From a virus, in the IMG/VR virus record IMGVR_UViG_3300002153_000349, positions 3,176 through 67,175 of that record: a DNA stretch of 64,000 nucleotides, one strand, 5' to 3'. The translations under genes were made by a program, and so were the position numbers. Below are positions 2,166 to 30,917 of the stretch, in pieces (the first letter of the stretch is position 1; every line of letters begins with the position of its first letter). Below the pieces are notes generated by a model, which was given only the letters and a program-made list of their open reading frames with translations, searched no databases and was not told the DNA's origin.

Positions 2166-4172
2166 ATGGCAGAACAATTTGAAAATCCAGGAAAAGGAAG
2201 CGGAAAAAGAAAAACACCATACGTTGATGAATATGGAGAAGACCTAACGGCTGAAGCTGCAAAAGGAAACTTAGACCCTATTATAGGGAGAGAGAAGGAA
2301 GTATATCGTATTTGTCAAATTTTATCTAGAAGAAAAAAGAACAATCCAATTATCTTAGGAGATCCTGGTGTAGGTAAAACTGCATTAGTCGAGGCGATTG
2401 CACAAAGAATTGTAGATAAGAAAGTTGCTAGAACACTGTTAAAGAAAAGAGTAATTTCTATTAATATCTCTAACATCGTTGCAGGTACAAAGTATCGTGG
2501 TGAATTCGAGGAGAGAATGAAAAATATAGTAGATGAACTAAAAAACAATAAAGATATTATTGTATTCATCGACGAATTACACACGATCGTTGGAGCAGGT
2601 GGTGTTAGTGGATCTTTAGATGCATCTAATATATTAAAACCGGCATTAGCAAGAGGACAAGTACAGTGTATTGGTGCAACTACATTAGATGAATATAGAG
2701 AAAATATCGAAGATGACGGTGCACTTACCAGAAGGTTTCAAGAAGTGTTTATCGATCCACCTAGTGAAGAAGACACTATAGAAATATTACAAAAAATAAA
2801 GGGAAATTATGAAGAGTATCACGCAGTTGAATATACTGACGATGCAATCGAAGCGTGCGTCACTCTTTCTACTAGATATATTACTTCTAGGGAATTACCC
2901 GATAAAGCGATTGATTTACTAGATGAATCAGGTGCAAAGGTTCACTTAAGCGAAATTAAAGTTCCTGTTCATATTAAAAAAGCAGAGATGGAAGTAGAAT
3001 CACTCACGCTCGAAAAATTAAAGGCAGTTGAAGAACAAGACTATGAAAAGGCTGCACACTTCAGAGATAAAGAAATTCAATCGAAGAATAAAATCGAGGG
3101 GAAAATCACTGCATGGGAAAAATCATTAAGAGATAAGAAAAAGAAAGTTACAGCAGAAGATATTGCAGAAACTATTTCGCAATCTACCGGGATTCCAATT
3201 ACTAGAATGACAGGTGATGAAAGTAAAATCATCATGGCAATGGAAACAGAATTAAAGAAGATGATAGTTGGACAAGATCAAGCAGTAGACGCATTGTCTA
3301 AAGTAATTAAAAGATCTAGAACGGGTGTATCTTCAGCTAAAAAGCCAATAGGTTCATTCATGTTCCTAGGACCAACTGGTGTAGGTAAAACTGAGACTGT
3401 TAAAGCCATTACTAATTATTATTTCGGAGGTGAAGAACACCTTATAAGAATTGATATGAGTGAATATATGGAAAAGTTCGCGGTATCTAGATTAATAGGT
3501 TCTCCTCCAGGATATGTTGGACATGAAGACGGTGGTCAATTGACAGAACAGGTTAGAAGAAAACCATATTCAGTTGTACTTTTCGATGAAATTGAAAAAG
3601 CACACCCGGACGTATTCAATACTCTATTGCAAGTATTAGATGAAGGAAGATTAACAGATTCATTAGGAAGAACAGTAGACTTTACGAATACAATTATAAT
3701 TATGACATCTAATGTTGGTGCTAAAAAAGTAAGTGAGTTCGGAACGGGTATTGGATTTGAAACTAAGAAATCTTCAATCGCTGGAAGAAAAGCACACACT
3801 GAAGCTATTATTGCGAAGGAACTTAAGAATAAGTTTGCTCCAGAATTTTTAAATAGATTAGATGATGTAGTATTATTCGACCAATTAAAACATGAAGATA
3901 TTCTTCAAATAGTTGATATTGAAGTTCAGCACCTTGTAATTAGAATGTTTGATCAGAAATATAATATTAAAGTTACTAAGCAAGCGAAAGAATTTTTAGC
4001 AGAAAAAGGATATGATCCTGACTATGGAGCAAGGCCTCTTAAAAGAGCTATTCAAACATATATTGAAGATCTTTTAGCAGATTCAATTATTAAAGGAGAT
4101 ATAGTAACAGGTGATGAAGTTTACACGATCAATCACACTAAGAAAGAAGATAAACTTTCTATCAAAAAGTAG
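2166..4172 (+). CDS. clpC: ClpC-type Hsp100 ATPase lacking the N-terminal domain
   Basis: Two AAA+ modules (GDPGVGKT, GPTGVGKT; FIDE, LFDEIEK), GTKYRGEFE and PPGYVG pore loops, UVR middle domain (AVEEQDYEKAAHFRD), IGF ClpP-docking loop. The protein begins directly before NBD1. Confidence 0.92.
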   Translation: MAEQFENPGKGSGKRKTPYVDEYGEDLTAEAAKGNLDPIIGREKEVYRICQILSRRKKNNPIILGDPGVGKTALVEAIAQRIVDKKVARTLLKKRVISINISNIVAGTKYRGEFEERMKNIVDELKNNKDIIVFIDELHTIVGAGGVSGSLDASNILKPALARGQVQCIGATTLDEYRENIEDDGALTRRFQEVFIDPPSEEDTIEILQKIKGNYEEYHAVEYTDDAIEACVTLSTRYITSRELPDKAIDLLDESGAKVHLSEIKVPVHIKKAEMEVESLTLEKLKAVEEQDYEKAAHFRDKEIQSKNKIEGKITAWEKSLRDKKKKVTAEDIAETISQSTGIPITRMTGDESKIIMAMETELKKMIVGQDQAVDALSKVIKRSRTGVSSAKKPIGSFMFLGPTGVGKTETVKAITNYYFGGEEHLIRIDMSEYMEKFAVSRLIGSPPGYVGHEDGGQLTEQVRRKPYSVVLFDEIEKAHPDVFNTLLQVLDEGRLTDSLGRTVDFTNTIIIMTSNVGAKKVSEFGTGIGFETKKSSIAGRKAHTEAIIAKELKNKFAPEFLNRLDDVVLFDQLKHEDILQIVDIEVQHLVIRMFDQKYNIKVTKQAKEFLAEKGYDPDYGARPLKRAIQTYIEDLLADSIIKGDIVTGDEVYTINHTKKEDKLSIKK

Positions 4173-5388: not shown

Positions 5389-6228
5389 ATGAAATACGGA
5401 CTGACCGGATTTAATAGAGTCGCTAGAACCACAACAAAATGGTTCTCTCGACTCTTACGAGTATTCGAGAGACAGAAAAGAATTGACTGGGCTAAGTATA
5501 TTGACGACACCGTTGTTATTCATCTTGCATACAGAAAGGATAGATTAAAAATAGCAGAAAAGAGAGCATCTTCCCAAAAGCTAAAGGGACGTAAAACATT
5601 ACTAGATCATTTAAGATTCTTTGACGCAATAGAAGGAAAGAAAATTAAATGGTTTTCTAAAAAAATACACATTAACAAATATCCATTTTCATTTCACTGG
5701 GAAATAGATCCTTCTCCCGGAATGAAAAATAAATTAAAAAGAAATAATAAGATATTATGTTCTTCTGCTGAAACTGGAATCGCATTTTCACACTATAGAA
5801 TTTGGAAAGAAATTGTAGAGAATAAAACACCAGTCACCCTCATAATGGAAGATGACTTTGAATTTTGTCATAAGTTTCAAGATAAAATAGAAAGCATATT
5901 TGAAAAAGAACTTCCTAATGATTGGGATTTATTGTATCTTTCTAGTTTGCCAAATCAATTTGGATTTACATGGGATCCTCATTCTCAAAATCTATCACGG
6001 TTATATAATGGAGTATGGTGGCTATCAGGTTACGTATTAACATACGAAGGAGCTAAGAAATTATTAGAAGGTTTGCCTATTATCGGCCCTGTTGATGTAT
6101 GGATTAATTATCAATTTAAAGATATGAAAGTATATATGACTAATCATAATCTAATAACACAAGGTGACGATACCGAATCTGATAATACTTATTCCTATGT
6201 TGAAACATTTAAGGATAACTTAATATAA
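5389..6228 (+). CDS. GT25 family glycosyltransferase (Lex2B/COLGALT-like domain)
   Basis: VIHL..RKDRL, DAIEG, G...SHYRIWK, LIMEDD, DWDLLYL, GYVLTYEGAKKLL, PVD. Confidence 0.85.
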   Translation: MKYGLTGFNRVARTTTKWFSRLLRVFERQKRIDWAKYIDDTVVIHLAYRKDRLKIAEKRASSQKLKGRKTLLDHLRFFDAIEGKKIKWFSKKIHINKYPFSFHWEIDPSPGMKNKLKRNNKILCSSAETGIAFSHYRIWKEIVENKTPVTLIMEDDFEFCHKFQDKIESIFEKELPNDWDLLYLSSLPNQFGFTWDPHSQNLSRLYNGVWWLSGYVLTYEGAKKLLEGLPIIGPVDVWINYQFKDMKVYMTNHNLITQGDDTESDNTYSYVETFKDNLI

Positions 6229-6256: not shown

Positions 6257-6925
6257 ATGAATTACGGAAAAGAATTTCAGAAATACGCGATGAGTGATCA
6301 TAATGTTTCATCATCTAAATTAAATTACTATGAAAAGCAGATTGAAAACTCACTAACTCCGTATATTCTAGAAGAAAGAGAGTTAAGAGCTACTCAGATG
6401 GATATCTTTTCAAGATTAATGATGGACAGATTACTATGGGTCGCAGGACCAGTTAATGATAATATGTCTACTATTGTTCAAGCTCAGCTGATGTTTTTAG
6501 ATTCAGTAGGAGGAACAGATATTACGATGCACATTGACTCACCGGGTGGAAGTGTTAAAAGTGGACTTTCAATGGTAGATGTTATGGATTATATCAAATC
6601 AGATATCAAAACGGTAAATACCGGAATGGCTGCATCTATGGGTTCTGTTTTATTAGGAGCAGGAACTAAAGGAAAAAGATCTTCACTTAGACATTCTACT
6701 ACAATGTTACACCAGTCTTCTGGTGGATTTAATGGTAACATTCAAGATGCTGAAATAGACTGGAAAGAATGGCAAAAAGTAAATAAGGAATTGTTCAATC
6801 TTTTAGGAGAATATTGTGGAAAAACTGCAGACGAAGTAATGAAAGATGCTACTAGAGATTTCTGGTTAAATGCAAAAGAAGCGAAGGCATACGGTATTAT
6901 TGACGAAATCATCGGGAAATCCTAA
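6257..6925 (+). CDS. clpP: ATP-dependent Clp protease proteolytic subunit
   Basis: DIFSRLMMDR, IDSPGGSV, AASMGS (Ser), MLHQ (His), RDFW (Asp); Bacteroidota-type N-terminal extension (EFQKYA...LTPYILEER). Confidence 0.95.
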   Translation: MNYGKEFQKYAMSDHNVSSSKLNYYEKQIENSLTPYILEERELRATQMDIFSRLMMDRLLWVAGPVNDNMSTIVQAQLMFLDSVGGTDITMHIDSPGGSVKSGLSMVDVMDYIKSDIKTVNTGMAASMGSVLLGAGTKGKRSSLRHSTTMLHQSSGGFNGNIQDAEIDWKEWQKVNKELFNLLGEYCGKTADEVMKDATRDFWLNAKEAKAYGIIDEIIGKS

Positions 6926-8217: not shown

Positions 8218-9444
8218 ATGCCACAGGTCACATATGAAGATATTATAGGTTACATTGATAACACAATCGATGTTACACAGGGAGATTCACAAGTCTATAC
8301 TATAAAATTATATAGAGATAGAGTCGGTGGAAATCTTAATCCATCTCTTTATTCTAGTTTTACTATGAATTTATTAGATGAATCGTCTAACTTAATCGCA
8401 CAATATGCAATGCCTAGGGTATACGGTGTCTCAGGTGAATTAAATTTAATTAATACTGACCCAGAAACACAGGCTGTTTTTCAGTTTGAGTTAGCAAAAT
8501 TACAAACATTAAATCTTCCAGCTGGAAAAATATATGTAAATATCGTAGTGACTAATGATAGAATTAATCCTACTAAAATATATTCTTTACCTAATCTAGA
8601 AATTGGATCAATTTTATTTAATGAAAATAGACATGATCCTTCCCTATATAAGTCTACTCAAAGAAGTTCAGGAATAGGAGTGTCGGCATCGATGGACCCT
8701 TATTATAAAGTTCAACATATAGATGGCTCGGTTCCTATCGGACAAGGAAATTTATCTTTAGATTCAGGATCTCCTGGAGAAGTAACCAAAATGACATTTA
8801 TGAATAGTGATTTTGATGGAATTAGAGTAAGTGTTCTAGAAAACTTCTTAATTAATAGAATAGATAGAGATGGAATCGAAGGTACGATTACATTAATAAA
8901 CAGAGGCGACACCGCACAGTATTCTATATTTAATGTAGTAGACTGGTACAGAGTAAATTGCGGATCTGGAAACTGCGTCGATGATATAGATGATGCAATA
9001 CAATTAATCGTAGTTCATGAAATGTCAACTGAAGGACCTGGTGTACATAAAAATAATTGGCTAGTTACGGACGAAGTTTCATTTAAACTAGATGTATATG
9101 GTTCTGCACTATCCGCGTCTGATTTAGGTAAGAAATCTAGCACAACTTTAGATAAAGAATTAATTCCAAATAATACATCTGGAAATGTATCTAGAACTGG
9201 AATTATATTATCAGTTACGCCGCAAGATGGCCAATACATTGATGTAGAAATTAATGGTATCTCTATTTCATTAGGAGACGGAACTAAAAATCTAGATGGT
9301 TACTTTTCAACAGATGGAGGAACTACTGCTAGAACATTCCAAGATATCCGAGTAGGTGATGAATTAATCTTCAACGCGATAGTTGCAGGATATGAGCTCA
9401 GTGATGAAGATAGAGTCTCTTTATTCTACGAATCTTATTCTTAA
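8218..9444 (+). CDS. Putative virion structural protein
   Basis: Beta-rich composition; C-terminal domain (YFSTDGGTTA...GDEL.FN...AGYEL) is paralogous to that of 13586..14362. Confidence 0.6.
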   Translation: MPQVTYEDIIGYIDNTIDVTQGDSQVYTIKLYRDRVGGNLNPSLYSSFTMNLLDESSNLIAQYAMPRVYGVSGELNLINTDPETQAVFQFELAKLQTLNLPAGKIYVNIVVTNDRINPTKIYSLPNLEIGSILFNENRHDPSLYKSTQRSSGIGVSASMDPYYKVQHIDGSVPIGQGNLSLDSGSPGEVTKMTFMNSDFDGIRVSVLENFLINRIDRDGIEGTITLINRGDTAQYSIFNVVDWYRVNCGSGNCVDDIDDAIQLIVVHEMSTEGPGVHKNNWLVTDEVSFKLDVYGSALSASDLGKKSSTTLDKELIPNNTSGNVSRTGIILSVTPQDGQYIDVEINGISISLGDGTKNLDGYFSTDGGTTARTFQDIRVGDELIFNAIVAGYELSDEDRVSLFYESYS

Positions 9445-9614: not shown

Positions 9615-11384
9615 ATGGCACAAATTCGTTCAAAACAAATTTCTGACTTTCTAAGTTCAATCACATGGGCAAATGTTATCGCGTCTGACAATGTAAAAAT
9701 TGCAAACGTATGGGACATCAAACAAGGATTTGACACAGTAGATGCATCAGTAAACTCTCTAGAAAACTATATCTCAACTGAGGTATCTTCTTTAGAAATA
9801 GTTGATGGTAAACTATCTGCAGAGATCGTAACAGAAAAAGAAAGAGTAGATGCAATCTTAGAAGCTTCAACAGCAGACAAAGATTCATTCGCTGAAATCG
9901 TTTCTTTAATCAACGCAGTTGATACTGAAAATGACAGTGCATTCGCTTCATTTGTACTAAGAACAGATAAATCAATCGATTCATTAGAATTAGTTGATGC
10001 TGATCTTCAAGGACAAATCACAAGCAATGACACTGACATTCTTGGTTTACAAGGTGATGTTACTTCATTAGACACTAGAGTTTTAGGTGTTGAAGGTGAC
10101 TTAGCTGCTGAAATCACAAGAGCTGGTAACAGAGAAGATGCTATTGAAGCTGCATTAAATGCAGAGATAGCTACGACTGGCGCTGAGCAATTAGCACAAG
10201 ACGCTTCTATCAATTCTTTAGAAGCTGCTGATGTTGCTTTCGGTGAAGATGTTACTTCATTAGACACTAGAGTAACTGGTGTTGAAGGTGACTTAGCTGC
10301 TGAAATCGACAGAGCAACAGGAGTAGAAAACAAGATATCAGAAGCATTAGCTGCTGAGATCGCTGAAACTGCTGCTGAGCAAGCTGTACAAGATGCTTCT
10401 ATTAATTCATTAGAATCAGCTGATACTGCATTTGAAGCTGCTTTAGGTGAAGAAGAAAAAGCAAGAGTTGCTGCTGATGTAGCATTAGGTTCTAGAATCG
10501 ACGCTAACGATTTAGATAACGCTAACTTAACATTATCTGTAAACTCTTTAGAGGTTGTTGATGGTGAATTAGCATCTGACATCGCTACAGAAAAGAGTAG
10601 AATCGATGCAATCTTAGCTGCTTCAACTGCAGACAAAGATTCATTCGCTGAAATCGTTTCTTTAATCAACTCTGTTGATACTGAAAATGATGATGCTTTT
10701 GGTGCATTCGTACTAAGAACTGATGCTTCAGTTGATTCTTTAGAAGTTGCTTTAGCTGCTGAAATCTCTTCAACTGACGCTGAGCAAATAGCACAAGACA
10801 GATCTATCGATTCTTTAGAAGCTGTTGATAACAATCTAGCGATTGCTATCGAGCAAGAAAAAGAAGATAGAGCTAATGAAGACGCTAAGTTAAAATCACA
10901 GATCGACGCAAATGACGCTGACAACTTAAGATTAACTGCTTCAGTTAATTCTTTAGAGGTTGTTGACGGTGAATTAGCTGGTGACATCACTTCAATCGAC
11001 ACTAGAGTATTAGGTGTTGAAGGTGACTTAGCTGCTGAAATCACAAGAGCTGGTTCTGTTGAAGCTGCTTTATCTGCTGAATTAGCTGCTGAGATATCTA
11101 CAACTAACGGTGAGGTAAATGTTATAAACGCATCTATCGATTCATTAGAAGTAGCTGTTGAACAAGGAGCAACGTATTTAAGACAAACTGCAGTATTCTC
11201 TGCAAGTAACTTATTTACTATACCTATGCCAGTATTATTTGGTGCTAACGATGATTTATCCGTTTATGTAAATGGTGTATTCGTTGACTTCAGATGTACA
11301 GGTCAAGAGGTAGACTTCACTGGTTTATTAGCTTACAATGTTGACGCTAATGACAAAGTTCAAGTTATGGGTATCAAAGCATAA
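9615..11384 (+). CDS. Acidic repeat-rich coiled-coil fibre/structural protein
   Basis: Repeated SI(D/N)SLE, D(V/I)TS(L/I)DTRVxGVEGDLAAEI x3, DAILxASTADKDSFAEIVSLIN x2; small C-terminal beta domain (VYVNGV); strongly biased codon usage. Confidence 0.7.
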   Translation: MAQIRSKQISDFLSSITWANVIASDNVKIANVWDIKQGFDTVDASVNSLENYISTEVSSLEIVDGKLSAEIVTEKERVDAILEASTADKDSFAEIVSLINAVDTENDSAFASFVLRTDKSIDSLELVDADLQGQITSNDTDILGLQGDVTSLDTRVLGVEGDLAAEITRAGNREDAIEAALNAEIATTGAEQLAQDASINSLEAADVAFGEDVTSLDTRVTGVEGDLAAEIDRATGVENKISEALAAEIAETAAEQAVQDASINSLESADTAFEAALGEEEKARVAADVALGSRIDANDLDNANLTLSVNSLEVVDGELASDIATEKSRIDAILAASTADKDSFAEIVSLINSVDTENDDAFGAFVLRTDASVDSLEVALAAEISSTDAEQIAQDRSIDSLEAVDNNLAIAIEQEKEDRANEDAKLKSQIDANDADNLRLTASVNSLEVVDGELAGDITSIDTRVLGVEGDLAAEITRAGSVEAALSAELAAEISTTNGEVNVINASIDSLEVAVEQGATYLRQTAVFSASNLFTIPMPVLFGANDDLSVYVNGVFVDFRCTGQEVDFTGLLAYNVDANDKVQVMGIKA

Positions 11385-11429: not shown

Positions 11430-11457
11430 AAAGGCTCCTCGCAAGAGGAGCCTTTTC
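11430..11457 (+). terminator. Intrinsic terminator
   Basis: aaaggctcctc-gcaa-gaggagccttt followed by T. Confidence 0.85.
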
Positions 11458-11495: not shown

Positions 11496-12683
11496 ATGAA
11501 CATTGGAATTACATTAGGATTACAGCAGGATAATGAATCTCTTTGGATAAATGGAATTAAATTAAATGTATTAAATTTAATTGAAACACTTTCTGCTATT
11601 GGAGAACATGAAGTATACGCACTAGACACGAGTAATAAAGTTAAAGATATTTCAAAGGTAGAATGGGACACTTCTAAATATCCTATTTATAAATATGCTG
11701 ATAAAATTAAATCAACAGACATATTAATATTATTAGGAACTTCATTTAGTACGGAACAAACCATTGCTCTTAGGAATAAAAACCCTAAGATTAAAATTAT
11801 TAAATACTTTTGCGGTAATAATTACATCATAGATATGGAAAGAGTCTTATTTGATTCTAAAGAATCTGTTAGCAATTGGACACATGGCCATGACGAAGCA
11901 TGGTTTATTCCCCAACAAGAATATCAGAATAGATCTTATTATCAAACAATGGGAAGACTTTCTGCAGATAAAGTCAAAGTAGTTCCATTTGTATGGAGTC
12001 CTAAGTTTATAAAAGAAGAGAATTCTAAAAATGTTAAAAACGGTTTAAAGGACGCTTTTTATCAGGGAGGTAAAAATGCAGAAGATATGAATTTATCTTC
12101 AATGGAACCTAACATGAATGTAGTTAAATATTGTATGCCTCTCATTATGATGGTAGAGGAATTATATAGAAAGAAAGGTAAAAAATCATTTAACGAATTT
12201 TGGATAGGAAGCGGCAAGAGACTGCTATCAAGTAAATACTTTATTAGCTCTATTAAAAACCTAGACGTAACTCATTCTGGAAAATTAAAACTATGTTCAA
12301 GATATCCAGTAACTAGCTTTCTTTCTGAAAAAACCGATATAGTATTGTCTCATCAATGGGACAATCCTCTTAACTATGCATACTTGGATGCCCTTTATTT
12401 CGGATATCCTTTAGTCCATAATGCAACAATGATTAAAGATGCTGGATATTATTATAAGGGATTTGACACAGTGTCAGCCTCAGAGATGCTAGCGAATGTA
12501 TTAAATCACCATGACGAATTAAAGGAAGATTACAATACTAAAAGTGCAAAGGTGCTTTCGAGATATCTAACAACAAATCCAAATATCGTAGATACATATA
12601 AGAAACTAATAGAGAATATTTTTGAACCGGGAAAACACGCTCTATCCGATGAATATGACTGGTCAACAAACCTATATAAATAA
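11496..12683 (+). CDS. DUF2827-like protein (putative GT-B glycosyltransferase)
   Basis: SLWINGI, VPFVWSP, EPN.NVVK, SHQWDNPLNYAYLDALYFGYPLVHN. Confidence 0.7.
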   Translation: MNIGITLGLQQDNESLWINGIKLNVLNLIETLSAIGEHEVYALDTSNKVKDISKVEWDTSKYPIYKYADKIKSTDILILLGTSFSTEQTIALRNKNPKIKIIKYFCGNNYIIDMERVLFDSKESVSNWTHGHDEAWFIPQQEYQNRSYYQTMGRLSADKVKVVPFVWSPKFIKEENSKNVKNGLKDAFYQGGKNAEDMNLSSMEPNMNVVKYCMPLIMMVEELYRKKGKKSFNEFWIGSGKRLLSSKYFISSIKNLDVTHSGKLKLCSRYPVTSFLSEKTDIVLSHQWDNPLNYAYLDALYFGYPLVHNATMIKDAGYYYKGFDTVSASEMLANVLNHHDELKEDYNTKSAKVLSRYLTTNPNIVDTYKKLIENIFEPGKHALSDEYDWSTNLYK

Positions 12684-12694
12684 AACAAATAACA

Positions 12695-13465
12695 ATGGAA
12701 TTAAAAGAAATAATCGAAGCGGCCGCAAAGCCAAAAATTAGTATCATAATGCAATCCTATCTTGGTAATTATCCAGGATCTAGGAAAGATTCACATTCTA
12801 AATTTTTAAGAGCAGTTCAAAGTTTTCAAAATCAATTATATAAAAACTGTGAATTAATAATAGTAGCAGACGATTGCATGGAAACAAAGGCATTATATGA
12901 TGTTCACTTTAAGGGTGAAAATAATATGAGATTAATATATGTTTCTAGAAAGAAAAACGAGATGAGTACATATATGGAAAATGAAGAAGGCCATAAATAC
13001 TATAGAGGGTTTCCTCGTAGAGTAGGTGTAGGAGCTGCAGTCGGCGACTTGATTACATATATGGATTCAGATGATATGTTACTAGAGGAACACACATTAC
13101 ACTTGATGATAGAATTTAATAAGAATCCTCAAGCTAATTGGTGGATTAACAGATCATGGTATGATAATGAAGTTATGAAATTCAAAGATGATAAGACATT
13201 TGAAGATTCTCCAGAATATGGAGAAGAACTCCCAGATGTTGAAGGTAAATGGAACATATCTAGAATAAAGGAAGGATTAGTAGTAATGAGTCCCTGGTTA
13301 TTTATGCATAGGCCTTCTCCATCAGTTAAATGGAGAGATACATGGGGTAATGTAAGCGAAGATTCAGATTTCAATACAAGATTTAGAGAAAAACACAAAG
13401 GAGGAGCTGTGATGAACAGGCCAACATACGTAAGGTGTCACTTCGCGAATAAATGGGATATCTAG
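12695..13465 (+). CDS. GT2/GT-A glycosyltransferase
   Basis: KISIIM, ELIIVADD, ITYMDSDD, SED motifs. Confidence 0.85.
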   Translation: MELKEIIEAAAKPKISIIMQSYLGNYPGSRKDSHSKFLRAVQSFQNQLYKNCELIIVADDCMETKALYDVHFKGENNMRLIYVSRKKNEMSTYMENEEGHKYYRGFPRRVGVGAAVGDLITYMDSDDMLLEEHTLHLMIEFNKNPQANWWINRSWYDNEVMKFKDDKTFEDSPEYGEELPDVEGKWNISRIKEGLVVMSPWLFMHRPSPSVKWRDTWGNVSEDSDFNTRFREKHKGGAVMNRPTYVRCHFANKWDI

Positions 13466-13585
13466 TCCCTAAAAATAATATCTTATACTGCTATTTTTGT
13501 CACTATCTTGCGACAAATTCTAATATATAAGATTGAGTGGATTAAATTCCACATTTAAAATAAATTAAAAAAAATGTAACTATTC

Positions 13586-14362
13586 ATGTCATTAATTAAA
13601 ATCAAGCAAATTGACGGCTTACAAGCTGCTCTTGATCTTATTAACACCAGCATTGAATCAGGTTCGTTAAAATCATCATACACACAGGAAGACCACGGTT
13701 TTTCTGCTGGAGTTGTTATAGCGTACGTCGGTTCTAGGTGGGTGTTAGCTGATTCAAGCACTGCTAACAAGCTAGGAAGATTAATCATCGAATCTATTGT
13801 AGATGCAAATAACTTTATTGCTGTACAAGTTGGAACTATTACTGTTTCTACTTGGCCAAAGTTAGATGTATTAGTTCCAGGAGATTTCTACGTAGTAGAT
13901 AACTCAGGTAACGGTACTTTAGAAGATTACGTTAATACTGGTGATCCAGGTTTTGCATACAGCAATCCTGTTTTACAAGCATTAACAACAACGATGGGTC
14001 ACGTTCTTCCATGGAGACCATCGCAGTCACCAACAGACCTAATTCAACCAGAAGAATTTACACAGACTTCATTCTCTGCTGTAACTTCAGGTAATTACTC
14101 ATCAACAGGACTTACACTAACGTATACTCCTTTCCAAGATTCAACAGTTCAAGTATTCTTAAACGGTATAGCACTTGACGAATCTTATAATGATAGAAAC
14201 GGAGACGTATATTTCTCAAGAGACGGTGGTGCAACTGCTGTTCCTGCATCTGACTTAGATGCCGGAGATACACTTTACTGGAACGGAACTCTTGCAGGTT
14301 ATGAACTTGCTGCGAGTGATCAGTTTGAAGTAGTATACGACAAAAGTAATCTAGACGACTAA
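13586..14362 (+). CDS. Putative virion structural protein (fibre-associated)
   Basis: N-terminal IKIKQI resembles IRSKQI of 9615; C-terminal domain is paralogous to 8218; AATATATA at 13522-13529 upstream. Confidence 0.6.
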   Translation: MSLIKIKQIDGLQAALDLINTSIESGSLKSSYTQEDHGFSAGVVIAYVGSRWVLADSSTANKLGRLIIESIVDANNFIAVQVGTITVSTWPKLDVLVPGDFYVVDNSGNGTLEDYVNTGDPGFAYSNPVLQALTTTMGHVLPWRPSQSPTDLIQPEEFTQTSFSAVTSGNYSSTGLTLTYTPFQDSTVQVFLNGIALDESYNDRNGDVYFSRDGGATAVPASDLDAGDTLYWNGTLAGYELAASDQFEVVYDKSNLDD

Positions 14363-14382
14363 AAAAAATAAATTATTAAAAC

Positions 14383-19926
<5,544 letters not shown>

Positions 19927-19951
19927 TTTAAACCAATCAAGATAATTTTAG

Positions 19952-19981
19952 AAAGGGTCCTCGAAAGAGGACCCTTTTTTT
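19952..19981 (+). terminator. Intrinsic terminator
   Basis: aaagggtcctc-gaaa-gaggacccttt followed by a T-run. Confidence 0.88.
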
Positions 19982-20027
19982 ATGTGATATATAGATTGTA
20001 ATAACTTATTATCTTATTACAAATAGT

Positions 20028-20054
20028 AAACAATTTAAAATATTTAAGTATAAC
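20028..20054 (+). promoter_or_regulatory. Class A promoter (with a class C GATATATA at 19986-19993)
   Basis: AAAC-N17-TATAAC. Confidence 0.65.
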
Positions 20055-20079
20055 TAATATTATAGAACACAATATCTAA

Positions 20080-21012
20080 ATGGAGAAAATAATCAATCAT
20101 GATACATTTAATAAGAATGTAAAATTATACGTAGAAAGCGTAACTAAAGGCACAGAAAAATATACTCTTACTGGATGGGTTGGATTAATCGGAGGCGAAG
20201 CTCTTGGGTTTTCAATGTCAAACAAACCTCTTTCCAATGAATTTACAGGTATAAGAATAGACGTAATGGAAGCATACGATAATATATTCACTAATAAGAA
20301 TATGCATTTTACCCTTGAAATTCCATTAGACAAAAAATTAAACACACTGGTTATTCACACTAGTATTGGAGAAACAGCAATCGGTCCTATAGGACACTGG
20401 TTATCTTATCATTCAGGCTTTGCAAATACTTCAAAGGATATTATAGTAGTAGATAACTTTTATAATGACCCTGATCTTGTAAGAGAATGGGCTATGAACA
20501 GTGTAGACTTTTCACCTTCAGAATACCATAAAGGTCAAAGAGCAAATGAAAGATTTATCTTAGATGGAACTAAAGAAAAACTAGAAGAAATTATAGGAAA
20601 ACCAATATTTAATTGGAATCACGACAGGTACGCTAATGGAATATTTCAGTTCTGTACGGCAGATCAGCAAATTGTTTATCATGTAGATAATCAGACTTAC
20701 GCAGCAATGGTATATTTAACACCAGACGCACCTCCAACCTCAGGAACTGCGTTTTATAGAAGTAAAGTAACGGGTGATTATACATTCGATGACGATAAAA
20801 GAAAAACCCAAGCATACGTTGATGCATTCAAGGGTAACAGTAACGAAATGAATTTTTACGATGGATCTAATTTTGAAAAAATAGATGAAGTAGGGAACGT
20901 GTATAATAGATTAGTATTGTTTAATGCTAAAAATATTCATGCTGCAACTCAGTATTTTGGAGATGCAATTGACAACGCTAGATTTTTCCACATGTTCTTT
21001 TTTGACGTATAA
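20080..21012 (+). CDS. 2OG-Fe(II) oxygenase (DUF6445-like) with an extra N-terminal domain
   Basis: IIVVDNFYNDPD, HVD, YLTPDAP..SGT, YNRLVLF, distal His (IHAA) and Arg (ARFF). Confidence 0.75.
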   Translation: MEKIINHDTFNKNVKLYVESVTKGTEKYTLTGWVGLIGGEALGFSMSNKPLSNEFTGIRIDVMEAYDNIFTNKNMHFTLEIPLDKKLNTLVIHTSIGETAIGPIGHWLSYHSGFANTSKDIIVVDNFYNDPDLVREWAMNSVDFSPSEYHKGQRANERFILDGTKEKLEEIIGKPIFNWNHDRYANGIFQFCTADQQIVYHVDNQTYAAMVYLTPDAPPTSGTAFYRSKVTGDYTFDDDKRKTQAYVDAFKGNSNEMNFYDGSNFEKIDEVGNVYNRLVLFNAKNIHAATQYFGDAIDNARFFHMFFFDV

Positions 21013-21027
21013 AAAACAAATATAAAT

Positions 21028-22902
21028 ATGAAGATTAATATTATTACAAGGTGTACTAGAACAAGTAACCTTTTAACAATTAAAGAAGGAGTATTAAATG
21101 CACCTAAGGGAGTAACGGTAAATTGGCACATTGTATTTGACACAGGAGCGTTAAAGGATATTGACGCAGAGGTTCTTTCGAACTTAACAGATACTGTCAA
21201 TGTCAAATTACATTTTGTAAAAGGTCAAAAAGGAGGATTATTATATCCAGAAGTTTCAGATATTATTAGAACCATTAAATCAGGTTGGATCTATTTATTA
21301 GATGACGATAATATTATTCACGATGACTTTTATAAAACTATTAAAGCGAGTATAAAGAATCTTCCAGTTGCGCAAGTTCATATAGTTTCTCAATTAGTTG
21401 CTGGTAAAGATTTTACAGGCCAAGAAATTAGAGTTGCTAGTCGTGAAAATACAGCCTTTCAGAAAATAGACATTGCACAAATGGTTATTAATAGGAGTAT
21501 ATTCGATACACATTCTTTTAGTGCAAATTATGCAGCCGACGGTTTCTTTATAGAAGAAGTATTAAAAACACATGGAGATTTATTTGTATGGATTGATAAG
21601 GTTTTATGCCACTATAATTATTTAGAAAAAGTACCATCCGCTAAAATACCTAAAATACTTTATATAGGAAAAACTAAACCAGAATTAAAGTCTATAAAAT
21701 ATTTATCATACGAAGCAGATGAACTAGACGTCAAGTATATGGAAGACGATAGTGAAGTAATTGACACAGTCACTTTATTTAATCCTGACGCAATTATTAC
21801 AAACGGAGAATCATGGAAAGAGTTTCCTAACCTAGCTTCTCTTCCTCTTCAATTTAGAAAAAGGTGGTTTAATTCAGAATCTATTGATAACATTGGAAAT
21901 ACCGCGTATTCCGTTGCAATGAATTCTATTTTATCTCCATCTAACCTGGAAGATGACCAGATGATTTCATTCTTCACTCCTATATATAATACTGGTGAAA
22001 AACTATGGAACACGTACAGATCTGTAAGAGACCAGACGTATAATAACTGGGAATGGGTTTTAGTAAATGATTCTACAGACGGAGGTAAAACTTTAAAGAT
22101 AGCAGAGGAGATTGCCTTAGTAGATCCACGAGTAAAGGTATATGATTTCAGAGAAAAATCAGGAGGATGTATTGGAGAATCTAAATACAGATGCTGTTCT
22201 CTTGCTAAGGGATATATTCTAGCAGAATTAGATCATGATGATTTATTAGTTAAAACGTGTGCTGAAGATTTACATAATGCAGCACAGGCACATCCGGATT
22301 GTGGTATGTTTTATGGAGATACGGCAGAAGTTAACGAAGAATGGGAAAATCAAAAATATGGAGAAGGTTTCGCACTAGGATATGGTTCTTACAGAGATGA
22401 GGAATATGAAGGTAGATTATTAAGTCCTGCGAATCAACAGAATATTAATCCTAAAACAATCAGACATATTGTAGGAGTTCCAAATCACGTTAGAGCATGG
22501 AGAAGATCTACTTATTTTGAAATAGGAGGACATAATAGAAGTTTAACAATTGCAGATGATTTTGAATTAGTTATCAGAAGCTTCCTATATTCTAAGATAT
22601 GTAAAATACCTAAACTAAGTTATATACAGTTTCTCTATAATAACTCGGGCGGAAGAAACACTCATGATTTATCAAGAGCAGATATTCAAAGAAGAGTTAG
22701 AACTATAGCACAGTATTATAATGAACAAATCAACGCTAGATTTATTGAGCTAGGAATAGAAGATTGGGCATATAATGAAAGGCCTGACTATCCTATCTCA
22801 GCAGAATCAAGATATGGAGAAGAAGAGGGAGTTGCTAACGAAACATACACTGAAAAATCAGGAGTTGAAAAAAAAGTAACTAAATTACAAAAAGTAAAAT
22901 AA
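21028..22902 (+). CDS. Glycosyltransferase with two GT-A/GT2 domains
   Basis: N-domain YLLDDDN; C-domain FTPIYNT, WEWVLVNDSTD, ELDHDD, ADD. Confidence 0.85.
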   Translation: MKINIITRCTRTSNLLTIKEGVLNAPKGVTVNWHIVFDTGALKDIDAEVLSNLTDTVNVKLHFVKGQKGGLLYPEVSDIIRTIKSGWIYLLDDDNIIHDDFYKTIKASIKNLPVAQVHIVSQLVAGKDFTGQEIRVASRENTAFQKIDIAQMVINRSIFDTHSFSANYAADGFFIEEVLKTHGDLFVWIDKVLCHYNYLEKVPSAKIPKILYIGKTKPELKSIKYLSYEADELDVKYMEDDSEVIDTVTLFNPDAIITNGESWKEFPNLASLPLQFRKRWFNSESIDNIGNTAYSVAMNSILSPSNLEDDQMISFFTPIYNTGEKLWNTYRSVRDQTYNNWEWVLVNDSTDGGKTLKIAEEIALVDPRVKVYDFREKSGGCIGESKYRCCSLAKGYILAELDHDDLLVKTCAEDLHNAAQAHPDCGMFYGDTAEVNEEWENQKYGEGFALGYGSYRDEEYEGRLLSPANQQNINPKTIRHIVGVPNHVRAWRRSTYFEIGGHNRSLTIADDFELVIRSFLYSKICKIPKLSYIQFLYNNSGGRNTHDLSRADIQRRVRTIAQYYNEQINARFIELGIEDWAYNERPDYPISAESRYGEEEGVANETYTEKSGVEKKVTKLQKVK

Positions 22903-23519
22903 TGGGAAAATACGTAGAAATATTAGATGCAAGCAATTGGGAAACATGGTGCGACAAATACATTGATCCACTTTTAAGAAAAGGAGAATACGAATTAATA
23001 GTAGATGAGGTAGCTCCAAGTGTATTATTATTTCCTTTATTTAAAGAACAGTTTTGTAAAGATTTAATAGAACTATGTGAAACCGAGGGAGAGTGGACTG
23101 TAGATAGACACGAATTTTATCCAACAACTGATATGTTAATTAGTCAAGTATGGATGAATGAAATTTATGCTAGAGTACTTAACGAATTTGTAAGACCTTT
23201 AGGTATATGGTTCTGGACATTAGAAGGAAAGCAATGGAATTCAATGTCAGATGAAACATTCATAGTAAAGTATACTACTGAAACACAGGCACATCTTTCT
23301 CTACACCATGACAATAGCCATTTAACTACTGTTGTAAAAATGAATGACGACTTCGAAGGAGGAGGAACGTACTTTCCACTTTATAAAGCAAATGTAAATC
23401 CTAAAAGAATAGGAATGGCAGCTTTACACCCAGGTGCGATAACACATAGACATGGCGCAAAGCCTATTCATTCAGGAACAAGATACATTACTGTAAGTTT
23501 CTGCAAGATGAGTGGATAA
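22902..23519 (+). CDS. 2OG-Fe(II) dioxygenase resembling the PLOD procollagen lysyl hydroxylase catalytic domain
   Basis: W..KYI, FPLF.E.FC..L, PT.D, FIVKY...Q..L..HHD.S, FEGGG..F, HPG..TH.H, GTRYI.VSF. Confidence 0.82.
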   Translation: MGKYVEILDASNWETWCDKYIDPLLRKGEYELIVDEVAPSVLLFPLFKEQFCKDLIELCETEGEWTVDRHEFYPTTDMLISQVWMNEIYARVLNEFVRPLGIWFWTLEGKQWNSMSDETFIVKYTTETQAHLSLHHDNSHLTTVVKMNDDFEGGGTYFPLYKANVNPKRIGMAALHPGAITHRHGAKPIHSGTRYITVSFCKMSG

Positions 23520-23526
23520 ATAGAAT

Positions 23527-24480
23527 ATGGAACAGATAAAATCATTTAACCAATTTATTAACGAAAACTTAAACGAAGATACTAATGATCTTTTTAAAGT
23601 TTATTTAGCAATTGATCCCGATTCAGGTCACAGATGGTGGTCTTATAAGGGATTTGCCAGCGATAATTTCTTTATACAAATTAATAAAGATAATTATAAA
23701 GACATTGACATCAATCCGGATTATCCTATATTGACTTATAACTCAGGAGTTGTTGAAACTCTTTTAAAAGAAGAATTAGTTAAAAAGGAAAATGTATATA
23801 ATAGACCGGAATTCATTAAGCAATCTGGCTCTAAAGCAGAGTTTCATAAAATAGTAGATGGAGATGAAAATATTCCACAAACATGCCATGACGAGAAAGA
23901 AGCTCTAAAGATTGGTTTTCCATTAATTGCAAAGCCAGCTGAAGGACATTCAGGTATTGGAATTCAGGTTTTTAAATCTCAAGAAGATTGGGATAAAGCT
24001 GATCATTCTAAATTTGATGTATATTCAGAATTTGTAGATAAAAAATCAGAGCATAGAATAATTAACTTTAAAGGAGATGCTTTCTTTTGGATGGAAAGAG
24101 AACCATTAAATGATAAAGCAAAATCAGGTGATGGTGACGGTAAAGAAGAAATGAATTTTAAATATATTAAAAGAGACATTAATACTCTTCCTGAAAAATT
24201 TAAAACTCTAATAGAAAAGTTCTGTGATAAGTTTAAAGATTTACCTTATATATGTTTTGATATAATGGAAGATCAAGAAGGAAAGCTTTATATTATAGAA
24301 AGTAATTCTCAACCTGGAGTTCCTTATGATTCGACAGTTCAAATATATCGTAAAATATTTAAAGACTTTTACGGAAGAGAAGTAAACAAAGACACTGATA
24401 AAGTTTTAACAAAATTATCTAATGACTTAGACAAAAAGACAATAGAACTTGACAGTAAAAGATTCGAAATAAAAGAATAA
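23527..24480 (+). CDS. ATP-grasp fold ligase (RimK-like) with a CTS-like N-terminus
   Basis: FPLIAKPAEGHSGIGI, EHR, FDIMED, IIESNSQPG; starts MEQIKSFNQFINE; GATAAATA at 23515-23522. Confidence 0.75.
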   Translation: MEQIKSFNQFINENLNEDTNDLFKVYLAIDPDSGHRWWSYKGFASDNFFIQINKDNYKDIDINPDYPILTYNSGVVETLLKEELVKKENVYNRPEFIKQSGSKAEFHKIVDGDENIPQTCHDEKEALKIGFPLIAKPAEGHSGIGIQVFKSQEDWDKADHSKFDVYSEFVDKKSEHRIINFKGDAFFWMEREPLNDKAKSGDGDGKEEMNFKYIKRDINTLPEKFKTLIEKFCDKFKDLPYICFDIMEDQEGKLYIIESNSQPGVPYDSTVQIYRKIFKDFYGREVNKDTDKVLTKLSNDLDKKTIELDSKRFEIKE

Positions 24481-26653: not shown

Positions 26654-26848
26654 ATGGAAGAACAATTACTAAAAGTCATTGCGGAGCAACTTACTAGAAT
26701 TGCAGATCTTATGGAAAACCAACAGAAAAGAGATGTGGTTGAAAAAAGAAAGAGCATCAAAGTCGTTAAGGAAGCCGTAAAGAAAAGAAAGAATGAACTA
26801 CTACGAACTGCTGCAGATAGACAAGTCAGCAAGCCAAGCCGAGATTAA
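26654..26848 (+). CDS. Small basic helical protein
   Basis: ATG 26654 lies 4 nt after TATAAATA (26642-26649); overlaps the dnaJ start. Confidence 0.55.
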   Translation: MEEQLLKVIAEQLTRIADLMENQQKRDVVEKRKSIKVVKEAVKKRKNELLRTAADRQVSKPSRD

Positions 26849-27593
26849 GAAGGCCTATCGTAAATTAGCAAAACAATATCATCCCGATACTGATCAAGGG
26901 GATGAGTCTTCCTTTAAAGAAATCGTTAATGCGTATGAAGTTTTATCTGACGAAAACAAGAAAAGAAAATATGATATTAGCATAGGACATGCATCTTCTG
27001 ATAATCCATTTCATACTTGGTTTCAAAATGAAGGAGGATCTTTCAGCGATATGTTTAACGATGCATTTGGTTCTTCGTCAAAGGGAGTGGATGTCACTGT
27101 TAGAATGACAATAACCCTAGAAGAATCTTATCATGGAACTCAAAAGAGAGTAGACCTAGGTTCTAAAAAGTTAAATGTTAATATACCTAAAGGAGTCTAT
27201 GAAGGTATGAAGCTAAAGATTAGTGGAAAAGGTCAACCTCATCCGGCTAATTCATCTGCACCTAACGGAGATTTAATCATTGTAATTAATTTAAAATACG
27301 ATGATAGGATTATATTAAACGGAAGTGATATTTACGTAGATGCAAACGTTCCCTTTTATGACATGATTCTAGGAACAGAAATAGAAGTAAATACACCCTT
27401 TTATAAATTAAAGGTAAATGTTCCTCCAAACTCACAAAATAATAAGATACTAAGAATAAGTGGCAAGGGTTTTCCGATATATAGTATGAATACTTTTGGT
27501 AACCTTATGGTGAAGTTAAATGCATTTAATCCACCGCTAAAGGATTCACAAATAGACTTAATAAAAAAAATTAAAAAGATAGACAATGAATGA
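26793..27593 (+). CDS. dnaJ: DnaJ/CbpA-type class B J-domain co-chaperone
   Basis: NYYELL...IKKAYRKLAKQYHPD J-domain, short G/F region, DnaJ_C domains, no Zn finger. Confidence 0.9.
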   Translation: MNYYELLQIDKSASQAEIKKAYRKLAKQYHPDTDQGDESSFKEIVNAYEVLSDENKKRKYDISIGHASSDNPFHTWFQNEGGSFSDMFNDAFGSSSKGVDVTVRMTITLEESYHGTQKRVDLGSKKLNVNIPKGVYEGMKLKISGKGQPHPANSSAPNGDLIIVINLKYDDRIILNGSDIYVDANVPFYDMILGTEIEVNTPFYKLKVNVPPNSQNNKILRISGKGFPIYSMNTFGNLMVKLNAFNPPLKDSQIDLIKKIKKIDNE

Positions 27594-29857: not shown

Positions 29858-30201
29858 TGAGGAGTTTGTTAATAGGAATGTTATTATTCCTAGGAGGCCA
29901 GATCGGAATATGGTTTCAGACTAATAGTCAGTTTATTTCTCCATGGGCTAAAAGAAATCCAATGCTATTATCAGTTGTAGGAGGAACTATAATAAGTTAT
30001 ATGTTTATTAAAGCAACTGCACAGATTGCAGGATATTATGATGGTGCACTATGGCCTGGCAGATTTATAGGTTTTTCTATGGGAATATTCTCATTCGCCT
30101 TTTTAACATGGTATTTTATGGGTGAAGGTATTAATACAAAGACAATGGTTTCACTATGTCTAGCAATAGCACTAATTAGCGTACAATTATTATGGAAATA
30201 A
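29857..30201 (+). CDS. Small four-TM membrane protein (DMT/SMR-like size)
   Basis: 114 aa with four hydrophobic helices. Confidence 0.65.
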   Translation: MRSLLIGMLLFLGGQIGIWFQTNSQFISPWAKRNPMLLSVVGGTIISYMFIKATAQIAGYYDGALWPGRFIGFSMGIFSFAFLTWYFMGEGINTKTMVSLCLAIALISVQLLWK

Positions 30202-30917
30202 ATTCAGTTACAGTTGTTCTTACTTCATGTGGGAGAATAGATCTTTTAGAAAAAACACTAGATTCTTTTTTTAAATTTAACACATATCCCATTGAAAGAT
30301 TTATTATAACTGAAGACTCTGCACAACATGAAGTATTCGATGCATGCGTTGAACTTAATAAGAAGTATGATAATTCTATTGAGTTTATGTTTAATGAAAA
30401 TAAGCTAGGACAATCTAAGTCAATAGACAAGGCATACTCTACAGTAACTACGAAATATGTTTTTCATTGTGAAGAAGATTGGGAGTTCTATAGACACGGA
30501 TTTATTGAAGATTCTATTAGAATTCTTTCTGCAAGTGAAAAGATATTACAGGCATGGATACGTCCTAAGAACGATAGAATTTTAAATAAAATATCTGAAA
30601 AAATATTCGAATTAAATGGAATGAAAGTTAGAGCAGTTCTTCCTGCTAGTTTTTCAACAGGGGATATGAACGAAGATGGTACTCCTATGATAGTTAAAAA
30701 CTATATGGGATTTAGCTGGAATCCAGGCCTAAAACGAATTAGCGATTACAGACTATTAACTAACGGGTACACGGGAATGGTCAGAGAACATCTAGTGGAT
30801 CATTGGTATAGAGATCATGGTTTTATAGTTGTCAGTTTATCTGTGAACGACGGAGACGGGTATGTTAAACATATCGGATGGGACAGAAGAGCAGGAGATC
30901 CTGGTTTTGTAGGATAG
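30192..30917 (+). CDS. GT-A/GT2-like glycosyltransferase
   Basis: VVLTSCGR.DLL..TL.SF, IITEDS, YVFHCEEDW, FSWNPGL, HIG. Confidence 0.78.
   Translation: MEINSVTVVLTSCGRIDLLEKTLDSFFKFNTYPIERFIITEDSAQHEVFDACVELNKKYDNSIEFMFNENKLGQSKSIDKAYSTVTTKYVFHCEEDWEFYRHGFIEDSIRILSASEKILQAWIRPKNDRILNKISEKIFELNGMKVRAVLPASFSTGDMNEDGTPMIVKNYMGFSWNPGLKRISDYRLLTNGYTGMVREHLVDHWYRDHGFIVVSLSVNDGDGYVKHIGWDRRAGDPGFVG

Follow-up and report, generated by a model that had tools for sequence, protein, structure and literature searches.

A stand-alone collagen lysyl hydroxylase-type domain and a COLGALT1-like glycosyltransferase as candidate fibre-modifying enzymes of a large tailed phage

The formation of hydroxylysine and the attachment of sugars to it count as chemistry of animals, and mimivirus is the single viral example. 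The closest described animal system is the complex of human LH3 (PLOD3) and COLGALT1 (PDB codes 6fxk and 8zgc), and the closest viral one is the mimivirus protein L230 (PDB codes 6ax6, 6ax7 and 9nev), a virus-encoded lysyl hydroxylase (LH) that accompanies virus-encoded collagens. Passages of PMC9546862 describe activity of L230 both as a collagen lysyl hydroxylase and as a hydroxylysine glucosyltransferase, and they report a tail-to-tail homodimer with a second Fe site for L230 and LH family members. Here we analyse a 64-kb stretch of viral DNA, referred to as the window (bases 3176-67175 of a single virus contig of 67,175 bases, IMG/VR record IMGVR_UViG_3300002153_000349), in which a stand-alone 205-residue domain of the LH3/L230 type is encoded near a collagen-like fibre protein. 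The gene content suggests that the DNA comes from a large marine tailed phage and that the region is a tail-fibre module.

An earlier sequence-only reading of the window, confined to positions 11496-23519, had pointed to three genes downstream of the collagen gene: a 2-oxoglutarate (2OG)-Fe(II) oxygenase at 20080-21012, which is a DUF6445 protein, a double GT-A glycosyltransferase (GT) at 21028-22902, and the 205-residue dioxygenase at 22902-23519. The last two were taken as a split PLOD3-like pair that hydroxylates and glycosylates the fibre, a pathway for which no phage precedent was known. On that last point our full-text searches, which did not cover subscription journals, agree: they returned no paper on a phage lysyl hydroxylase or on hydroxylysine in a phage fibre.

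Prokaryotic precedents are of another kind. The parts of a review consulted here (PMC8968730) state that prokaryotic collagens are mostly neither hydroxylated nor glycosylated, and deal with glycosylation or prolyl 4-hydroxylase (P4H) in connection with Bacillus BclA. Sections of Iyer et al. 2010 (PMC2938197) present bacterial collagen-like proteins with predicted hydroxylases of other oxygenase families, and cyanophages that carry arrays of 2OG oxygenases. What they share with the window is the idea that co-encoded 2OG oxygenases modify prokaryotic collagen-like proteins, with further decoration to follow; unlike the window, no PLOD-type lysyl hydroxylase and no GT25 figure in those sections. 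In the portion of PMC12801897 seen, GT25 appears in a gene table only.

The window resembles the animal system in that its hydroxylase domain is homologous to that of LH3 over the full length, with all metal and 2OG ligands, and that its GT25 best matches the catalytic domain of COLGALT1, including the EDD motif region. Relatives in other phages join both activities in one chain. Unlike LH3 and COLGALT1, the window has no PLOD-type GT and no accessory domains, there is no endoplasmic reticulum and no sign of secretion of the proteins, and the fibre, unlike animal collagen, has no proline in the Y position. The likeness to mimivirus extends to the GT25 and PLOD-type GT partners seen in phage relatives. 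In contrast to mimivirus, the host of the window phage is a bacterium, so that all steps must occur in the bacterial cytoplasm, and the hydroxylase is a stand-alone protein, with a separate GT25 about 17 kb away.

The hydroxylase domain, the fibre and the GT25

The main features are as follows.

22902-23519, + strand: stand-alone collagen lysyl hydroxylase-type domain, 205 aa (phmmer, AlphaFold2 (AF2), Foldseek, invariant catalytic residues)
14383-19926, + strand: collagen-like fibre protein, 1847 aa, the proposed substrate (Pfam PF01391 Collagen, 4.8e-228)
19624-19788, + strand: S74 intramolecular chaperone of the fibre, C-terminal, residues 1748-1802 (Pfam Peptidase_S74 PF13884, 8.8e-16)
5389-6228, + strand: stand-alone GT25 glycosyltransferase, COLGALT1-like, 279 aa (Pfam PF01755, 1.3e-18, profile positions 4-196 of 199)

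All genes listed for the region lie on the + strand, and the open reading frames (ORFs) named by the sequence-only reading were found at its coordinates. The hydroxylase gene overlaps the preceding stop codon as TAATG, the coupling noted before. The PLOD motifs that had been noted in the 205-residue protein also proved real. In a phmmer comparison with PDB sequences, the protein matched human LH3 with an E value of 2.9e-25 (query residues 14-201 on LH3 515-713) and mimivirus L230 with 2.9e-18 (28% identity), whereas prolyl 4-hydroxylases reached just 0.01. The homology covers the whole LH domain of LH3, including the helical part that precedes the double-stranded beta-helix.

With 21 homologues as input, AF2 gave a model whose mean predicted local distance difference test score (pLDDT) is 90. 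When it was submitted to Foldseek, all ranks to 15 were LH3 or L230, with template modelling (TM) scores of 0.83-0.88 (0.84-0.85 for L230), and the next match was the collagen prolyl 4-hydroxylase C-P4H-II (1.5e-06, TM 0.56). Sequence and fold thus both group the enzyme with LH3 and L230 and not with the prolyl hydroxylases, a comparison that had been suggested as a check. Residues His-135, Asp-137, His-184 and Arg-194 are invariant in 21 homologues and correspond to the Fe(II) triad H-x-D...H and the 2OG-binding arginine. They align with the HHD, THYH and GTRYI stretches of LH3. Identity to 20 aligned homologues is 38-61%. On this evidence from sequence and model, the 205-residue protein can be placed with confidence in the LH3/L230 family of collagen lysyl hydroxylase domains, its catalytic residues being intact. 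A homodimer prediction gave a score of 0.30 against a mark of 0.42 and was counted neither way. Pfam finds a weak OGFOD2-like match in the protein and nothing else, and routine annotation would therefore miss it; an NCBIfam search likewise assigned none of four proteins, namely the hydroxylase, GT25, DUF6445 and DUF2827 proteins, to a family.

The fibre is encoded by the sole collagen-like ORF of the window. It contains 520 Gly-X-Y triplets, with two main blocks at residues 24-794 and 911-1687, and because these repeats are combined with a C-terminal Peptidase_S74 domain it can be assigned to the collagen-like fibres of the phage tail-fibre kind. The Y position is occupied by threonine 156 times, glutamine 153 times, lysine 108 times and proline never, which bears out the earlier description of frequent lysine and threonine and little proline. 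In the X position lysine occurs in just 11 triplets and proline in 25. The X-Lys-Gly motif of lysyl hydroxylase substrates is accordingly present 108 times in the fibre encoded next to the enzyme.

The best PDB sequence match of the window GT25 is human procollagen galactosyltransferase 1 (COLGALT1), with an E value of 4.9e-11 versus 0.022 for a bacterial GT25. Its GT25 domain is full length and nearest to collagen-type members. The protein is the candidate hydroxylysine glycosyltransferase. The gene, at 5389-6228, lies outside the range covered by the sequence-only reading. A GT25 hidden inside that range was also considered and rejected: in BLASTP searches against the GT25-LH fusion protein of locus L019, the 624-residue double GT-A protein gave an E value of 1.1, the product of 13586-14362 gave 0.34 and that of 12695-13465 gave 5.2. 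Over 175 residues, the window GT25 itself shares 29% identity with its counterpart in the L019 fusion. One GT25 gene each is present on three related contigs with an unfused hydroxylase, and none was found on a fourth, a 46-kb fragment. The contig of locus L113, a relative discussed below, ends inside the ClpP gene, beside the site where a GT25 would be expected.

Fusion partners and gene context of the hydroxylase relatives

A scan of 1.84 billion representative proteins at E values up to 0.001 yielded 2303 relatives of the hydroxylase. Pfam domains were determined for 53 long relatives, picked by length among the best 150 of these. GT25 and/or the PLOD GT domain is present in 43 of the 53 (GT25 in 35, PLOD GT in 22, both in 14), and a GT4 domain alone in 3. 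The architectures comprise GT25-LH proteins of ~440-480 residues, GT4-GT25-LH proteins of ~740-860, GT25-GT_PLOD-LH proteins of ~860-990, and the animal-type GT_PLOD-LH. In the L019 fusion, for example, the N-terminal half matches COLGALT1 (5.4e-18) and the C-terminal half L230 (1.1e-22). Among the IMG/VR loci, too, the hydroxylase domain is mostly the C-terminal part of a larger protein. Three relatives, P0124, P0235 and P0156, show other partners of the hydroxylase domain, namely a C39 peptidase, a 2OG-FeII_Oxy_3 domain of the P4H type, and GT25 plus TPR repeats.

A quick maximum-likelihood tree of 126 domains, left unrooted, places the window domain in a supported clade of 14 (Shimodaira-Hasegawa-like approximate likelihood ratio test (SH-aLRT) 95) together with GT25-LH and GT4-GT25-LH proteins. 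The row closest to it is a 439-residue GT25-LH protein with 58% identity. The best animal-type PLOD match and the majority of the GT25-GT_PLOD-LH proteins fall in a separate supported clade of 34 rows, to which the window domain does not belong. The architecture switches many times on the tree, and therefore the stand-alone form is not unusual.

A relative is encoded in 221 stretches of IMG/VR. The best 80 loci and one from a first scan (81 in total) were dereplicated at 90% identity to 41 clusters, and in 28 of these the sequence reaches 6 kb or more upstream. In 18 of the 28, one to three ORFs with Gly-X-Y repeats (at least 30 triplets) lie upstream on the same strand, and no such ORF occurs in the downstream 10 kb of any of the 41. 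In two of the 18, L030 and L035, the fibre is a Ser/Thr-rich Gly-X-Y protein that has just one Lys triplet. The linkage is seen with four architectures and in phages that differ widely from one another. Hydroxylase relatives are thus encoded 3' of collagen genes on numerous divergent phage contigs, and the domain is associated with collagen genes as well as with collagen GT domains.

Two cultured phages carry fused versions.

MK613348.1, 2952-6564 (locus L180): Roseobacter phage CRP-6, GT25-GT_PLOD-hydroxylase protein near a collagen-like tail-fibre gene
NC_031922.1, 4684-6525 (locus L181): Synechococcus phage S-CAM9, gp218, a protein of the same kind

CRP-6 is a podovirus of 44.9 kb in which the linkage lies inside the structural gene block. 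Its annotated tail fibre, gp60, has 99 Gly-X-Y triplets with threonine in Y 48 times and lysine 26 times, and two genes downstream gp58 (589 residues, annotated as hypothetical) matches GT25-GT_PLOD plus the hydroxylase. According to a search listing, the word "collagen" is absent from the CRP-6 genome paper. In the T4-like cyanophage S-CAM9, gp218 (613 residues, also annotated as hypothetical) has the architecture of gp58 and lies near a tail-fibre gene with Gly-X-Y repeats. Two P4H-type oxygenases are encoded directly upstream of gp218.

Other kinds of fibre are found in these gene clusters. Repeats of the form Gly-Ser/Thr-Ser/Asn/Asp (GSS, GTS, GTN, GTD) adjoin the hydroxylase in L046 (2-1579), L060 (3-2354), L078 (2-2248), L030 (3-713) and L035 (2-898). 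These fibres contain almost no lysine or proline and represent a different kind of Gly-X-Y fibre. On the L079 contig, which has a GT25-LH gene, collagen-repeat frames of 2707 and 1268 residues (G010:C1:11348-22585, minus strand) lie more than 10 kb from that gene.

A scan of 185,579 species genomes gave 13 bacterial hydroxylase loci, which belong to Flavobacteriaceae, Thiotrichales, Aquimarina, Chryseosolibacter, Cyclobacteriaceae and more distant groups. Collagen was found elsewhere in the genome in 4 of 5 searched hydroxylase-bearing bacteria, versus 4 of 14 control genomes. In Aquimarina sp. RZ0 (L088, 4271-6337), a gene for a 460-residue GT25-LH protein is followed in tandem by one for a 215-residue stand-alone LH-type protein; a gene for a DDE transposase follows at a distance of 3.4 kb, and several collagen ORFs occur elsewhere in the genome, none of them inside 10 kb.

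Proposed modification of the fibre and alternative explanations

We favour the explanation that an LH-type hydroxylase and a GT25 of the phage act on the fibre, with DUF6445 and the double GT-A protein as a separate collagen-linked module, and we assign this explanation as a whole a probability of roughly 0.62. The 1847-residue fibre would be folded by its C-terminal S74 chaperone and probably modified chemically before trimerising. In the infected cell, the 205-residue protein most likely hydroxylates some of the 108 Y-position lysines by means of Fe(II), 2-oxoglutarate and O2. The hydroxylysine would then most likely be glycosylated by the phage's own COLGALT1-like GT25; this enzyme is placed after the hydroxylase because both domains are fused in relatives. 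The hydroxylase gene itself would have been added next to the DUF6445/double GT-A module. Probably, then, the phage decorates its own fibre, as reported so far just for animals and giant viruses.

If such modification is widespread in phages, bacterial viruses would build glyco-collagen fibres post-translationally, with a bearing on host recognition and fibre stability, and the phage version would bear on the origin of the animal LH3 and COLGALT1 toolkit. The small, bacterially expressed enzymes could also serve for modified recombinant collagen, which passages of PMC9546862 present as an unmet need. The idea is directly testable, since fused versions are present in CRP-6 and S-CAM9, both of which are in culture.

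Several observations weigh against this explanation. No collagen ORF lies inside 10 kb upstream in 10 of the 28 clusters; three of these have collagen elsewhere on the contig, and seven are fragments (13-44% complete) with none. None of the 13 bacterial loci has a collagen ORF within 10 kb, and two of them lie among ordinary cellular genes. The counts are also not independent events, because loci from one collection share ancestry. In the window, about 17 kb of DNA that includes unrelated genes, ClpP among them, separates the GT25 and hydroxylase genes, and loci L113 and L114 have no hydroxylase between the double glycosyltransferase and the ATP-grasp gene, so that the gene is dispensable.

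The lysine pattern adds to these points. Collagen ORFs with fewer than 50 triplets, or with less than 20% X-Pro, Y-Thr, Y-Gln and Y-Lys together, were dropped, and the control consisted of collagens from hydroxylase-free loci of the same locus sets rather than of a collection-wide background. Median Y-Lys is 12.8% beside the hydroxylase (31 ORFs, window lineage excluded) versus 16.7% without it (43 ORFs; Mann-Whitney p 0.43). The L113 collagen, with no hydroxylase, reaches 21.2%, and nearly Lys-free collagens adjoin the hydroxylase in L046 (1.3-1.4%) and L044 (0.5%). Since Y-Lys is no commoner beside the hydroxylase, the lysine richness of the fibre is not evidence for modification; the sequence-only reading had itself cautioned, rightly, that KGD salt bridges alone might account for the lysine enrichment.

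Some of these observations fit an alternative in which the hydroxylase acts on another virion or host protein, or on a small molecule, and lies near fibre genes because accessory genes gather there: the clusters and bacterial loci without neighbouring collagen, the lack of Y-Lys enrichment and the nearly Lys-free neighbours all favour it, as do the relatives in which a C39 peptidase, a P4H-type domain or TPR repeats are the fusion partner, and the cyanophage 2OG oxygenase arrays, to which the sections of PMC2938197 seen assign no role. It is harder to reconcile with fusion partners that belong overwhelmingly to two collagen-specific glycosyltransferase families (43 of the 53 scanned), with the placement of collagen genes, which precede the hydroxylase in 18 of 28 clusters and follow it in none of 41, and with the recurrence of the linkage inside the structural gene block of the 45-kb podovirus. 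We regard this alternative as unlikely.

A second alternative is the split PLOD3 of the sequence-only reading, in which the double GT-A protein would glycosylate the hydroxylysine made by its neighbour. The remaining genes of the enzyme run have to be considered here.

20080-21012, + strand: DUF6445 protein, 310 aa, probable 2OG-Fe(II) oxygenase (Pfam PF20043, 4.1e-15)
21028-22902, + strand: double GT-A protein, 624 aa (AF2 mean pLDDT 73, two GT-A domains; PF00535 match in the C-terminal half)
23527-24480, + strand: ATP-grasp ligase-like protein, 317 aa (sub-threshold Pfam ATP-grasp), last of the enzyme run

The three-gene run described earlier exists as such, and it continues into a fourth gene: the ATP-grasp gene starts 8 bases after the hydroxylase gene, to give four closely packed enzyme genes in total. 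The two GT-A domains had likewise been foreseen and are seen in the AF2 model. Asp-93, Asn-95 and the stretch E400-L-D-H-D-D405 are invariant in 22 sequences of the family, and both domains keep DxD-type motifs. This resemblance to PLOD3, which also has two GT-A domains, and the TAATG overlap of the adjacent genes favour a split PLOD3. The 624-residue protein nevertheless has no PLOD GT domain (PF25342) or GT25 match in Pfam, and its best Foldseek matches are dual-domain polymerases, namely E. coli K4 chondroitin polymerase (K4CP, 5.5e-15; 2z86), Pasteurella heparosan synthase (PmHS2; 8viw) and human LARGE1 (7ui6); LH3 is not among the matches listed. These enzymes share with it the presence of two GT-A domains in one chain, but identity is 10-15%, and the whole-chain TM score is ~0.3 because the domain arrangement differs.

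Gene context gives a similar picture. Among 8000 scored candidates, 2069 homologues of the 624-residue protein were found at E values up to 1e-05, and 230 IMG/VR stretches encode one. The best 80 of these stretches were dereplicated to 37 clusters, and 23 of these include 5 kb or more of upstream sequence. In 13 of the 23, DUF6445 adjoins the gene and collagen is encoded upstream, and in 9 both are missing; an adjacent DUF6445 without collagen does not occur, and collagen without adjacent DUF6445 occurs once (L113, where DUF6445 is ~550 bp away). Collagen is thus upstream in 13 of 13 clusters with an adjoining DUF6445 versus 1 of 10 others. The hydroxylase, by comparison, is present in 1 of the 37 clusters, which is the window's own lineage, and absent from the other 36. 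Five large contigs of double-glycosyltransferase phages (one 94% complete) contain no GT25 and no strong hydroxylase match, the profile matches being two at 18-20 bits. A split PLOD3 is therefore improbable, and this part of the sequence-only reading is not sustained.

In L113/L114, the gene order is DUF2827, GT2, the 258-residue gene, collagen, DUF6445, double glycosyltransferase (77% identical) and ATP-grasp. Because this nearest differing relative found lacks the hydroxylase at the same site, the hydroxylase appears to be an accessory addition to a pre-existing fibre module and not half of a PLOD3. By the same comparison of gene content, DUF6445 and the double GT-A protein appear to form a second, independent collagen-linked hydroxylase/glycosyltransferase module and not the missing PLOD3 halves. 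In the DUF6445 protein, which the sequence-only reading had assigned as a 2OG-Fe(II) oxygenase and which probably is one, His-201-x-Asp-203, His-287 and Arg-301 are invariant in 12 sequences; the match to 2OG-FeII_Oxy_3 (PF13640), at 0.0089, is below the cut-off. An hhalign comparison with the LH alignment gave a probability of 0.07, and searches of the PDB by sequence or profile gave chance-level matches alone, with no oxygenase. A protein atlas yielded nothing but DUF6445 clusters, mainly viral ones, and no structure.

More speculatively, DUF6445 and the double glycosyltransferase may modify the same fibre at another residue. Tailed phages could then run two collagen chemistries, an animal-like one in which LH and GT25 give glycosyl-hydroxylysine and one typical of phages in which DUF6445 and a LARGE/K4CP-like GT give a proteoglycan-like fibre, and the window phage would carry both on one fibre; we put this forward tentatively, as a possible but doubtful extension. 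If it is true, phages hold a large reservoir of the LH and GT25 toolkit beyond that of animals and giant viruses, the domain pair being fused in many phage contigs, and DUF6445 is a new hydroxylase family that prepares a fibre residue for a glycan built by the double glycosyltransferase.

Lys-Gly-Asp and Lys-Gly-Glu sequences stabilise collagen triple helices. Gly-Asp directly follows 77 of the 108 G-X-K triplets of the fibre (GDQ 51, GDI 12, GDT 6, GDR 3, GDL 2, GDK 2, GDV 1), and lysine avoids the X position both with and without a hydroxylase, which the salt-bridge idea also predicts. That the lysine pattern serves only such salt bridges in Pro-poor helices, with the hydroxylase a recent passenger of little effect on the fibre, would suit these counts, the equal Y-Lys frequency without hydroxylase and the absence of the gene from L113/L114, but is very unlikely given the invariant catalytic residues among homologues of 38-61% identity and a gene that is 91-92% identical across 17 contigs of the window lineage, and it covers the lysine pattern and not the conserved linkage of hydroxylase, GT25 and collagen.

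Neighbouring genes and the source phage

The fibre gene is preceded by a conserved block and separated from the enzyme genes by a hairpin.

11430-11455, + strand: terminator-like hairpin, 11-pair stem with 6 G-C pairs and a T-rich tail, upstream of the fibre gene set
11496-12683, + strand: DUF2827 protein, 395 aa (Pfam PF10933, 9.5e-91), conserved upstream block
12695-13465, + strand: small GT2-type glycosyltransferase, 256 aa (weak Pfam PF00535, 3.9e-07), homologues in L113/L114 and L174
13586-14362, + strand: 258-aa protein directly upstream of the collagen gene (no Pfam, PHROGs or NCBIfam match)
19952-19981, + strand: intrinsic-terminator-like hairpin, 8-bp G+C-rich stem, GAAA loop and 7 T, read from the sequence

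The DUF2827-like and GT2 genes upstream of the collagen gene agree with their earlier assignment, the latter by a weak match. Homologues of the DUF2827 protein with 52-65% identity are encoded upstream of collagen in L113, L151, L156 and L174; a search of PDB sequences at E values up to 1 gave no match for it. The 258-residue protein occupies the same position in L113 (82% identical) and L174 (57%). Further upstream, 8218-9444 and 9615-11384 encode proteins of 408 and 589 residues without a family match, homologues of which are found upstream of DUF2827 in L151, L152, L156 and L174; both genes would, by this conservation, be part of the block found ahead of the fibre in a number of lineages. 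The hairpin at 19952-19981 parts the collagen gene from the enzyme genes and was not listed by a consensus terminator scan.

Many loci, among them L018, L019, L026-L028, L036-L038 and L043, have a homologue of the ATP-grasp gene just 3' of the hydroxylase, and in L113 the homologue directly follows the double glycosyltransferase. The protein resembles TTL, R2K and D-Ala-D-Ala ligase, with every match below the Pfam cut-offs, and could add an amino acid or other group to the fibre. In relatives, a HAD-like gene of ~140 codons is often found between the hydroxylase and ATP-grasp genes.

The contig has a CheckV-type completeness of 20%, and close relatives sit on contigs of 160-179 kb. Window genes include those for a baseplate wedge subunit, a Lon-like protease, thymidylate synthase, ClpP, DnaJ and PhoH, and the baseplate protein is nearest to those of uncultured huge phages (41% identity). 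This gene content and the nearest baseplate relatives point to a large tailed phage from an environmental sample as the source. Megablast of the enzyme genes against GenBank phages gave no match. No tRNAs were found in the 64-kb window, and a promoter scan of the window was at chance level (49 observed versus 53.6 expected). Other genes of the window encode a LOG/lysine-decarboxylase-family protein (909-1649), the Lon-like ATP-dependent protease (2166-4172), ClpP (6257-6925), a full DnaJ (26793-27593) and a UvdE UV endonuclease (33326-34258). Another small GT2-type glycosyltransferase (Pfam 2.2e-06) is encoded at 30192-30917, 6 kb downstream of the enzyme run.

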